64,000 nucleotides of DNA from Sulfurospirillum sp. (GTDB taxonomy: Bacteria > Campylobacterota > Campylobacteria > Campylobacterales > Sulfurospirillaceae). A program made the translations under genes and the position numbers. Positions 25,440-28,301 of this stretch are shown here, piece by piece; the stretch's first letter is position 1; every line of letters begins with the position of its first letter. Below the pieces are notes generated by a model. It saw only the letters and a program-made list of their open reading frames with translations, did no database searches and was not told the origin of the DNA. Where the stretch lies: positions 42,461-106,460 of the forward strand of contig JASFYR010000019.1 of assembly GCA_045047115.1 (NCBI GenBank), written 5' to 3'.

Positions 25440-25482
25440 TGTAAAATTAGAATATGCGATTTTTGCATATTCTAATTTTACA
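25440..25482 (-). terminator. 18-bp perfect inverted repeat after xerH
   Basis: TGTAAAATTAGAATATGC-7nt-GCATATTCTAATTTTACA, 5 nt from the xerH stop. Confidence 0.7.
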
Positions 25483-25486
25483 CACT

Positions 25487-26527
25487 TTAGTAAATATCTG
25501 TTGTCTTTTTTAACTTTTCTTTATCGAAGTGGGTATAGATTCTAGATGTATTTATATCAGCATGACCAAGTGATTCTTGCACAAGTATGAGGTCATGACT
25601 TTTTTGATAAAGCAAAGTTGCAAAAGTATGTCTTAGCATGTGAGCGCCATTTTTTTCTTTTTTAATACCGGCGCTCATCAGAATTTTTTCAACAATTCTG
25701 CTTATGTATGCCTGGGTCAGTTTTCTGCCAAATTTATTGCAAAAGAGTAGGTTGTTTTCGCAAACTCTTTTGCCTAAGTAGTTACTTAAATCATGCTCTA
25801 TTATACCTTTTTTAATCATCACAACTCTTGGTTTGTTTCCTTTGCCTCTGACTTGTATGGTATAAAAATCATCTTGGGCATATATATCTTTCAAACAGAT
25901 TCCCAAAGCTTCACCAACTCTAATTCCGGTGTAGAGTATAATTTTTATGAGCAATCTGTTTCTAGAGAGAGTTTTTGGACTGAATTTATAAGCATCTATA
26001 GCTTGAATAAATTTTTTGACTTCATCTTTTTGCATATGAGAGGGCAGTTTTTCTCCACTTTTGCCACCAAGTCCTCCCCAATTTTTCAGCTCAATCAAAA
26101 AGCTGAATTTTTCATCATTTTGCTTATCTAAGAAGCCAAAAAAGCCCAAGAGTGCTATGCGATAATTTTTCTTTGTTGCATCTGAAAGTGTTGAAGTCTC
26201 AATGGCCAAAAATTCACTCAAAAACTCTTCATCTGTCTCTTTGAGAGATTTTGCTCCATAATTTGATATATAATTGAAAAGTTTTTCAAGCGGTATAAAA
26301 TACATATGTATGCCGTTTATGCCTACATTTCTTATCTTTTTTACCAAATCTTTCAAATCTTTTAAATTCTCTACATGTAGAGTTAGATTTTGAAGATACA
26401 GAGCCAGTGCCTCTTTGTCGTTTACTTGACGGTTAGACAAGGTGGTGACTTTGTACTTGATAAATCGACTGATCCAGAAAAGAAGGGACTTTTCTATGGT
26501 ATTTTCTATATCAATGGAGTATTTCAC
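25487..26527 (-). CDS. xerH: Tyrosine recombinase XerH
   Basis: TGIRVGE, GKGNK.R, KNGAHMLRH.FAT, LGHA...SRIYTH; XerH-type N-terminus; adjacent difH site. Confidence 0.92.
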   Translation of the reverse strand: MKYSIDIENTIEKSLLFWISRFIKYKVTTLSNRQVNDKEALALYLQNLTLHVENLKDLKDLVKKIRNVGINGIHMYFIPLEKLFNYISNYGAKSLKETDEEFLSEFLAIETSTLSDATKKNYRIALLGFFGFLDKQNDEKFSFLIELKNWGGLGGKSGEKLPSHMQKDEVKKFIQAIDAYKFSPKTLSRNRLLIKIILYTGIRVGEALGICLKDIYAQDDFYTIQVRGKGNKPRVVMIKKGIIEHDLSNYLGKRVCENNLLFCNKFGRKLTQAYISRIVEKILMSAGIKKEKNGAHMLRHTFATLLYQKSHDLILVQESLGHADINTSRIYTHFDKEKLKKTTDIY

Positions 26528-26539
26528 AATATAACCTTT

Positions 26540-26569
26540 TAGTATTGGAAACTATAATTTCCAAACTAT
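26540..26569 (+). other. difH site, copy 1 (attL-like)
   Basis: TAGTATTGGAAAC-TATAAT-TTCCAAACTAT resembles H. pylori difH as recalled (TAGTTATGAAAAC-TGCACT-TTTCAAACTTT); next to xerH. Confidence 0.85.
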
Positions 26570-26830
26570 TATATCATGATAACCTTTTAAAAACTTTACA
26601 CAAAAAATAAATCTTTGCATAATCAATTACACGAGCAACAAAAAGACAGAAATAATAATAAAACGCGTAGTAAGAAGAATTTACGGCAAGATTACAACAA
26701 ATTAGGCTTTTATAATTTCTTTAAGTAAAATTGCGCTAGCAAAATAAAAGCCCTTAAATGGGCTCCTATGGCTTAAATTATACTTAATTTAGTAAAATAT
26801 GCTATAATTTCCAAAAATATAGGATGTAGC

Positions 26831-27226
26831 ATGTTATTAACAACTAAAAGTACTTTTATGCCATACTTTGATTTTTTTCAAGTTGCAAACAAAGAGTACG
26901 AAAAGAAACCATCATTTTTAAGCAAAAAAATATTATCTATCATTGCCAATAATTTACATAAGCAATATATTGAAATAGAAAAAATAATCATAGACTTAGA
27001 TAAGTACAGTGTTGATCACTTGAATTTATTGTGTGATGAACTTTATGACAGCCTTGATGAAATCAAGTTATTAAAATCAAAAATCAAAAATAGCAATAGA
27101 AATAATTTTGAATATGAAAATTTATACAACAATGCTGATGATTTGCACAACTTAATTTTAACGCTTATTGAAAAAACAACATCTAAAGAAATACACGAAC
27201 TTAAAAATAAAAACCATGCAGCCTAA
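26831..27226 (+). CDS. Hypothetical helical protein, putative antitoxin
   Basis: TGcTATAAT and AGGA upstream; overlaps the downstream toxin-like gene. Confidence 0.6.
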   Translation: MLLTTKSTFMPYFDFFQVANKEYEKKPSFLSKKILSIIANNLHKQYIEIEKIIIDLDKYSVDHLNLLCDELYDSLDEIKLLKSKIKNSNRNNFEYENLYNNADDLHNLILTLIEKTTSKEIHELKNKNHAA

Positions 27227-27515
27227 ATATGAGATTATAAAAACATCAGACTACAAGAGAACCAGTAATAAATATATCAAAAGAAGAATATTAAAGATAC
27301 AAGAGATAGAAACTTGTGTACAAAAACTAATAATAGACAAACATGATCCAAAGTTAAATTTTAAGAAGATAAACTGCAAGCAAGATAAAAACCGATATTC
27401 AATAAAAATAAACAATCAAGGATATAGAGTTCTTTTAAGCATAATTGAAAATGAAATATTTTTAAGATGTATATGTGATCACGATGAATATGACAGACGA
27501 AACAAAGATTGCTAA
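27216..27515 (+). CDS. RelE/YafQ-superfamily toxin-like protein
   Basis: 99 aa, basic; pattern P.L..KK...YSIKIN..YRVLL...L..I.DHDEY. Confidence 0.65.
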   Translation: MQPKYEIIKTSDYKRTSNKYIKRRILKIQEIETCVQKLIIDKHDPKLNFKKINCKQDKNRYSIKINNQGYRVLLSIIENEIFLRCICDHDEYDRRNKDC

Positions 27516-27713
27516 TAAATTATTCAAGCTAAAAACGAACCTTGCTACATCACCACAGTAATACTTATCATAGAAAAAATGAAACCATAAGAAGTAAAAA
27601 TGTTCTTACTGTTATCTCAATATACTTGTCGCTAGAAATCTATTTGGCTTAGGCAAAGAGAAAATAGAATTTATGAATCACTCATCCCTTCAAATAGGAA
27701 CCTTTTGCCCAAA

Positions 27714-27743
27714 AGCGGTACAAAACTATAATTTCCAAACTTT
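27714..27743 (+). other. difH site, copy 2 (attR-like, degenerate left arm)
   Basis: AGCGGTACAAAAC-TATAAT-TTCCAAACTTT. Confidence 0.75.
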
Positions 27744-27757
27744 ATAATTATATCGAC

Positions 27758-28285
27758 TTAAAGCTTAAATGTATTTATTGGTGGTGTATTGATCTTGTGT
27801 TTTTTGGGATAGTCAAAAAATAGAATTTTACCCGTTCCCTCTTTAATTTTCTTAAAACTATCTATATCAAATTCTATACAAACGATAGAACAGGTTGGCA
27901 TATTTGTTAAAATTGCACCGCTTAAAATTTCTCCGACTTCTGTAATGGTTGGGTTATGGGCTACAATAAAAACAGAGTCTATGCTCTTTTCAAGTGAGTC
28001 AAGTATATAGCGATAGGTTTGATATGAACTCTCATATAAAGAGTCTATATAGGATATTTTGGATTTCTCATAGCCTATGGTTTGTGCTATCTCTGTGGCA
28101 GTTGTCTTTGCTCTTTTGGCAGGACTTGAAATTATGAGGTCCGGCATGATAGAAAAAAATTTCAATCTTTTTGCCATAAAATCCAAGTCAGCTCTGCCTC
28201 TTTTGTTTAGTATTCTCTCGAAGTCACTTTTGCCCTCTTCTTTCCAGCTTGATTTGGCGTGTCTTATAAGGTATATTTTTTTCAT
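27758..28285 (-). CDS. sixA: Histidine phosphatase, SixA-like
   Basis: LIRHAKS, D.ER.LN.RG, SSPAKRA..T, VAHNP. Confidence 0.88.
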   Translation of the reverse strand: MKKIYLIRHAKSSWKEEGKSDFERILNKRGRADLDFMAKRLKFFSIMPDLIISSPAKRAKTTATEIAQTIGYEKSKISYIDSLYESSYQTYRYILDSLEKSIDSVFIVAHNPTITEVGEILSGAILTNMPTCSIVCIEFDIDSFKKIKEGTGKILFFDYPKKHKINTPPINTFKL

Positions 28286-28301
28286 GGTGAAATTATACAC
28301 T

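Follow-up and report, generated by a model that had tools for sequence, protein, structure and literature searches.

A probable XerH-integrated cassette at difH of Sulfurospirillum, carrying a toxin–antitoxin-like gene pair

The window analyzed here, a 64,000-nucleotide stretch of Sulfurospirillum sp. DNA, carries on its reverse strand xerH (25487–26527), which encodes the single Xer tyrosine recombinase of the host (346 amino acids, with matches to Pfam Phage_int_SAM_6 and Phage_integrase), and a gene for a SixA-like histidine phosphatase (27758–28300; Pfam His_Phos_1). Between these two host flanks lie two direct repeats on the forward strand, 1,174 bp apart, which the first-pass annotation had already recognized and which were confirmed in both position and orientation—that is, an intact difH (site 1, or attL; 26541–26567) and a degenerate difH (site 2, or attR; 27715–27741). 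The xerH orthologs of congeners are 75–85% identical and have difH beside them; a single Xer recombinase of approximately 350 amino acids with difH near its gene is the arrangement of the XerH/difH system. A perfect 18-bp inverted repeat was also observed at 25440–25482, downstream of xerH and upstream of an aldehyde oxidoreductase gene.

By the parsing scheme used for difH, with an 11-bp left arm, 6-bp center, and 10-bp right arm (PMC5241119), site 1 reads AGTATTGGAAA-CTATAA-TTTCCAAACT (left arm 26541–26551, spacer 26552–26557, right arm 26558–26567) and site 2 reads GCGGTACAAAA-CTATAA-TTTCCAAACT, with 7 of 11 left-arm bases altered and the spacer and right arm the same as in site 1. The spacer had been taken to be TATAAT, but the true spacer, CTATAA, lies one base further left, in the palindrome TTGGAAA-CTATAA-TTTCCAA. 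The earlier argument that a hybrid of the two copies would be the most consensus-like site adds nothing, since the 10-bp right arms are identical, site 1 is already a full consensus, and the copies differ on this side only outside the arm. Relative to difH of C. fetus (PMC2731167, Table 2), site 1 is mismatched at the first arm base and at one symmetric base pair, and the difH of site 1 is conserved beside or near xerH in eight congeners with 0–3 mismatches. XerH has been reported to read the inner five bases of each arm specifically (PMC5241119), with a G-C pair at the fifth-innermost arm position reported to be important; the fifth-innermost left-arm G is replaced by C in site 2.

An exact 19-mer is common to both sites, against an expectation of ~5e-8 per 1.2 kb for the base composition of the window, and no further copy with up to 2 mismatches was found elsewhere in the 2.14-Mb assembly. 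As a control, other genomes were scanned for the difH pattern, which occurs at no fewer than 120 loci, and the first 80 of these were read over 1.15 Mb, up to 10 kb on each side of difH. Among the 76 loci with a full difH, a direct half-copy was found at one (233 bp from difH) and an inverted half-copy at none. Furthermore, at 38 metagenome loci with this exact difH, neither a copy of the spacer plus right arm nor orfA or orfB, described below, was detected. The direct difH repeat is real and uncommon.

In agreement with the first-pass annotation, only two credible ORFs were found between the sites, neither of them integrase- or rep-like: orfA (26831–27226) and orfB (27216–27515), both on the forward strand and overlapping by 11 nt. 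The 26% GC content of the cassette ranks within the bottom 1.2% of 4,206 genome windows. Searches of 60 family genomes and 427 fetched loci yielded short A+T-rich matches to the cassette DNA at most, and no free phage or plasmid relatives were found in viral and plasmid collections.

The 99-amino-acid product of orfB is a putative toxin, predicted by AlphaFold2 (pLDDT 90.8) to adopt a RelE/YoeB/YafQ fold, with YoeB, YafQ, and HigB as the best Foldseek matches (E 1.5e-5, TM up to 0.75) and RelE/YafQ/ParE proteins as its Atlas neighbors. The predicted structure thus places orfB with the RelE-fold toxins, as a putative ribosome-dependent RNase. The protein is basic (23 Lys and Arg versus 14 Asp and Glu) and falls below every curated cut-off of Pfam and NCBIfam, with its homolog in genome G302 passing the Pfam ParE_like cut-off; 34 distant relatives were recovered with E-values up to 0.001. 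R71, H89, Y92, C54, and C99 are conserved in at least 90% of 29 alignment rows, and the conserved C54 and terminal C99 of the family could form a disulfide or a metal site.

The 131-amino-acid product of orfA is a helical putative antitoxin with no Pfam family at cut-off, no Atlas feature match at 0.9 or above, and no match to the RelB, YefM, DinJ, HigA, or ParD families of known antitoxins. A profile search with orfA recovered 41 proteins, and its identity to the closest partner proteins at orfB-family loci is 23–30% in the alignment. At all 15 distinct loci with an orfB homolog (at least 60 bits), a co-oriented gene for 109–159 amino acids lies directly upstream. The predicted complex of orfB with orfA scored 0.84, compared with 0.01 for the best of three controls, with the runs agreeing in at least 97% of contacts and the partner modelled at a pLDDT of 82 or higher. 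Of 157 solved complexes, 116 attained the threshold applied to this score, as did 2 of 215 mismatched pairs, counts that are only approximate for our own alignments. The predicted interface takes in partner positions 117 and 120, both nearly invariant in the alignment. These predictions support binding of orfA to orfB and, with the partner present at every locus, point to an adjacent toxin-binding antitoxin. By fold, gene context, and complex prediction, the pair behaves as the toxin–antitoxin (TA)-like pair that had been proposed, and the cassette would define a TA family whose antitoxin belongs to no known family.

An extended −10 box upstream of orfA (26800–26808, forward strand) resembles part of a third difH and is best read as the promoter of the orfA-orfB operon. 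Either TATGCTATAAT or TATGATATAAT was found upstream of the orfA-partner homologs at four loci (L070, L071, L073, and L074), none of them at difH; a third partial site at 26790–26816, considered as a tandem att, was rejected on the grounds that it matches this conserved promoter of the operon family. Because 14 of the 15 strong orfB-family loci are without difH nearby (2–20 kb read), the pair is, judging from these loci, general mobile cargo. A PADLOC search for defence systems gave a weak PD-Lambda-2_A match alone (E 0.006).

Several observations were made elsewhere in the source genome (G000). Small TA-like genes, which by inspection are Phd/YefM-, YoeB/RelE-, and PIN-like, are clustered at C8:133500–136200, and Cas-like genes, type I-F by inspection, lie at C16:1011–7420; a crude finder detected no CRISPR arrays in this assembly. 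An inovirus with its own putative integrase occupies tRNA-Sec with a duplicated tRNA end (C29:316–12660) and is a possible helper.

Among 13 further genomes of the genus, eight had a readable difH together with the sequence to its right. The empty single-difH allele that the first-pass annotation had suggested looking for was found in G011 and G012, in which the end of the sixA-like gene directly follows xerH and difH, with flanks ~74–77% identical. The alignment of G012 with the window breaks off after site 1 and restarts at 27722, inside site 2. A 3,787-bp island at difH of G052, from the same family, ends at the difH core in comparison with the exact empty sisters G043 and G020 (flanks 88–91% identical). 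Both comparisons show a single dif with the junction in the dif core; neither a free circle nor an empty allele of the same species was seen. Site 1 and its flank share 40 identical nt with the single difH region of G009, and site 1 with its flanks looks native. Four of the eight congeners (G003, G004, G005, and G009; 4–19 kb read) and three metagenome loci (L252, L253, and L258) carry other genes to the right of difH with no second copy, indicating that the interval also gains genes otherwise, or loses attR. In G007 and G013, a 9.2-kb prophage lies between an intact difH and a direct, left-arm-altered copy.

Alternative cargo at the site, which was likewise to be looked for, was found between intact and degenerate difH in six other genomes. 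Across the seven clean pairs, including that of the window, the left arm is changed at 2–9 of 11 positions, the spacer at 0–1 (the single mismatch belonging to G007), and the right arm at none, the searches having been built on the spacer plus right arm and so favoring the left-arm-altered polarity. These elements comprise the integrase-less, double-jelly-roll-type prophages of G013 (L051:854–10040; 9,159 bp), G007 (L052:810–10051; 9,214 bp; one lineage with that of G013), and G416 (L234:6946–16926; 9,954 bp), all at difH; the G052 island; a plasmid-like element of G106 at difH beside xerH (L278:2217–19207; 16,964 bp), with Rep3, relaxase, ParA, primase, and TrbM genes and YafQ near attR, which is a GGI-like case for XerH; and a Rep_trans element of G421 between difH-like sites (L277:37–2105; 2,042 bp). 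The G421 site lies within the rep reading frame, such that single-copy integration would split rep, and the contig end looks like a second tandem copy.

A 15-nt pattern matched 125 of 401 genomes of the phylum, with a same-strand pair within 20 kb in five of them, namely the source genome, G007, G013, G106, and G421. Other candidates were set aside: G254 as a clean pair (imperfect left site, and a serine resolvase carried), the second pattern matches of G009 and G001 (away from xerH), and the G050 pair (two matches on separate contigs). In G176, two complete difH on different contigs (L281:31, L281:423; L280:5433), together with an inverted variant at a contig end, suggest an unassembled element. 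The 17 ORFs of the G013 element and 128 ORFs from eight further elements gave no match to a tyrosine recombinase family, and the cassette and the parallel elements, with G254 excluded from the count, carry no integrase of their own. None of the elements matched an XafT-like activator family.

The genes of the G007/G013 prophage include those for an HTH replication protein, a packaging-type ATPase, a PM2 P2-type capsid candidate, and a putative lysin, the last being our reading of a protein listed by PHROGs as of unknown function. The double-jelly-roll call is based on Pfam: P2_C is below cut-off in G013 and G007 and above it in the 43% identical G311 protein, and the G302 capsid candidate has P2_N plus P2_C. 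For the G013 candidate, a single-sequence fold gave a pLDDT of 33, and a sequence search of the PDB was without match. In a sample of 401 genomes of the phylum, 8 encode the packaging-type ATPase, and all six elements bearing it on long contigs are at a dif site—at difH in G007, G013, and G416, next to xerH in G254, where a single site is clear, and at an XerCD-type dif in G302 and G311, the far-end copy having a degenerate XerD arm; the contigs of G367 and G378 are too short to show element ends. The G302 prophage carries the same gene pair as the cassette, after the putative lysin gene. Found both at XerCD-type dif and at difH, the prophage lineage has switched recombinase systems.

The opposite polarity was also observed, with the elements of L251, L103, and L284 on the left-arm side of an intact difH. 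L251 (1024–1834), a metagenome contig with a host flank that matches the empty G012 allele exactly, and L249 both have a replication gene of the prophage type to the left of an intact difH, opposite in polarity to the window. In low-GC hosts, inoviruses and elements related to them border directly on an intact difH (L103, L284, L285, and L351), each starting with a winged-HTH gene, and L285 has one difH flanked by two mirror-image element copies. On a tailed-phage contig (L283:8476), a complete difH lies between the terminase and early genes, as it does on L100, L254, L257, L260, and L275; the 20 kb of L283 that was read showed no tyrosine recombinase, and its difH may be an attP or a multimer resolution site of the phage genome. 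Among plasmid and phage records, a search for difH-like sites yielded no Campylobacterota element at a credible level; an intergenic 35-nt stretch of a Clostridium perfringens plasmid (NZ_KT020842.1:3534–3569) matches the difH region at 89% (E 3e-3). Overall, difH is probably a general landing pad for integrase-less elements of the Campylobacterota, among them double-jelly-roll phages, inoviruses, plasmids, and rolling-circle mini-elements.

The promoter of xerH bears on how the cassette arrived. An extended −10 box, TGATATAAT, facing xerH in the left end of the cassette (26568–26576, reverse strand) is the presumed xerH promoter, and a TATAAT box in the host flank to the right of attR (27747–27752, reverse strand) would be the displaced native −10 element, such that a box lies on the right side of both sites. 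The gap between difH and the xerH start is 13 nt here, and in 10 of 10 other loci with a gap of 12–19 nt, an xerH-facing TATAAT lies 0–5 nt to the right of difH; an exact TGnTATAAT arises in 1.3% of shuffles of the 45 nt. Given this position of the box, insertion at this difH would separate xerH from its presumed promoter. In G007 and G013, the gap is 49–50 nt and the TATAAT lies between difH and xerH, with none at the phage end. Either the element would have brought a replacement xerH promoter, or the host acquired no more than the right end of an element, next to a native site 1 and flank.

The first-pass annotation had further expected the cumulative GC skew to flip near 26.5–27.7 kb. No flip was observed within 37 kb to the right of difH on this 106-kb contig (C19), in either the raw skew or that at four-fold degenerate sites; the expected coincidence was found in the complete congener G013, with the skew switch between 1.24 and 1.26 Mb and difH at 1.239 Mb.

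The 1,174-bp unit was probably put into the chromosomal difH by the host XerH in the manner of an IMEX. The locus has the two direct dif-derived sites of such an integration, one of them intact, and the earlier proposal of IMEX-like integration is supported by the empty alleles, the alternative cargo, and the evidence for a TA pair. A circular DNA would have borne an attachment site composed of the altered left arm, the CTATAA spacer, and the intact right arm, and crossover in the spacer would regenerate a full difH beside xerH, leaving the copy with the dead left arm at the far end. With the full difH regenerated there, dimer resolution would be kept. The −10 box at the left end of the cassette would take the place of the normal xerH promoter, allowing xerH to stay expressed, and orfA-orfB may act as a type II TA module that penalizes loss of the unit or serves in abortive phage defence.

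The left arm would be the one best bound and first cleaved by XerH, and with this arm dead, excision by XerH/FtsK would not occur readily. In H. pylori, the left arm of difH shows tighter XerH binding and first cleavage, is needed for recombination, and has been modelled as the XerD side (PMC5241119); XerH recombination there requires FtsK and is impaired by the difH mutations tested (PMC3325230). A dead left arm at attR would block excision in the way suggested for TLC and GGI. Against this mechanism counts the reported binding of both arms alike by C. jejuni XerH (review PMC5357621). Integration through a dead arm might proceed by a right-arm-first exchange resolved by replication or with an unrecognised activator, or the arm may have decayed after integration; the spacer mismatch of G007 would fit a right-arm-first exchange or later arm decay.

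Among the rival explanations, the one that survives best, itself improbable, is that a right-end fragment comprising the TA genes, attR, and the sixA flank arrived as linear DNA by transformation from a relative's XerH-integrated element. Entry would have been by homologous recombination in sixA and illegitimate recombination just right of the native promoter, so that XerH made only the donor's junction. The flank of site 1 is indeed host-like, as its identity with G009 shows, the −10 box lies on the right of both sites, no recognisable element-type left end is present in the cassette, and TA genes are found at the attR end elsewhere (this pair in G302, YafQ in G106). However, elements may themselves carry host-like right flanks, as 17 identical nt follow both sites in G416 and ~30 similar nt in G106, and an extra rare event is required. 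It is very unlikely that site 2 serves XerH as a regulatory half-site or arose by local duplication, with independent entry of the TA pair into a hotspot: the interval does acquire genes without second sites, and one of the 76 control loci does have a half-copy, but site 2 lies between two convergent gene ends rather than 5′ of a gene, it matches site 1 only across the recombination core, and prophages and plasmids are bracketed by the same intact/degenerate anatomy. Chance repetition in A+T-rich DNA, where partial matches containing TATAAT are common and most of 115 viral-contig matches to the 16-nt core were due to chance, is effectively refuted by the genome-unique 19-mer, its low expectation, and the control loci.

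Integration by XerH being the preferred reading, the nature of what was integrated can be weighed. Without a rep gene, origin, or transfer gene, the unit would be non-autonomous. The lack of a rep or transfer gene makes a shrunken remnant of a larger XerH-targeting element, which has close to an even chance of being correct, likelier than a minimal helper-dependent circle, which is possible but unlikely; as to fit, the remnant accounts for the data equally as well as a 1,174-bp unit moving as such. Somewhat more doubtful still is the full proposal that the unit is a minimal, still mobile element of a homotetrameric Xer system—with one dead arm, no XafT, the xerH promoter replaced, and a toxin with a new antitoxin family—within a general set of elements using difH as a landing pad.

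Small cargo between Xer sites, often TA pairs, is also characteristic of the pdif modules of Acinetobacter plasmids, whose XerCD sites are plasmid-borne and usually inverted, whereas the sites of the window are direct, chromosomal, and of XerH type. In TLC and GGI, degenerate XerD arms have been proposed to block FtsK-driven excision (PMC5357621; bioRxiv 10.1101/2021.09.09.459576). The TLC satellite and GGI resemble the window unit in having no integrase, in regenerating an intact dif at one end, and in keeping at the other end the central region and one arm, the first-cleaving arm being lost. They differ in using a XerC/XerD heterotetramer rather than one protein, XerH, on both arms, and in what they encode, which is Rep and XafT in TLC, a type IV secretion system in GGI, and only the TA-like pair in the window unit, neither ORF of which matches XafT or Rep. 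An attP of CTX type, in which single-stranded DNA folds back at two inverted dif-like sites, was rejected, there being no inverted dif-like site in the cassette and no such hairpin in the folded junction.

The dif-type double-jelly-roll prophages and inoviruses of Vibrio are integrase-less and small, with a full or one-armed attP, and toward the lysis end of the tailless prophages lies a variable locus for cargo, frequently TA pairs (PMC12715192; PMC11630473). The prophages of G302 and G311 fit this pattern, with that of G302 holding the cassette's own gene pair. The Vibrio prophages use XerCD/dif, whereas the related elements of G007, G013, and G416 are at difH and without a P15/XafT family match; the window unit, unlike the Vibrio prophages, has no phage genes. 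LME-1 of Legionella pneumophila is an IMEX of the single recombinase XerL (bioRxiv 10.1101/2021.09.12.459815) and, as described there, is likewise a stable element that exploits a single-recombinase dif and is flanked by a wild-type and a modified copy; it differs in its recombinase and site, in having three substitutions rather than a dead arm, and in that its dif is far from the xer gene, hence the absence of promoter displacement. With respect to the cargo, RelE/YoeB/YafQ/HigB modules share the toxin fold, the small overlapping operon, the antitoxin-like gene in first position, and the basic toxin, but differ in that orfB has two conserved cysteines and a helical partner of 110–160 amino acids outside RelB/YefM/DinJ/HigA.

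IMEXs are known for XerCD, including double-jelly-roll phages (PMC12715192). Tailless and filamentous phages of Sulfurimonas have been described without mention of Xer in the main account (PMC11531552), the supplements of which may list some difH elements. No description of an element integrated at difH, or of an IMEX of XerH, was found in full-text searches, whose coverage takes in few subscription journals, and the set of difH-targeting elements is apparently undescribed. The cassette itself is likely to be a real XerH-type integrated element, extending the range of IMEXs, and is of value mainly because it points to this wider set and to a family of TA modules whose antitoxin matches no known family. 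For XerH-difH, structures have been solved and an E. coli assay is available (PMC5241119); together with the natural attP variants, these make homotetramer hijacking and dead-arm integration without XafT testable. The biology of IMEXs was established with XerC/XerD, in which each arm is read by a protein of its own. The loci described here indicate that elements also exploit the XerH system of Campylobacter, Helicobacter, Arcobacter, and related environmental bacteria, and that the arm they disable is the one given the XerD role by structural work, even though one protein reads both.
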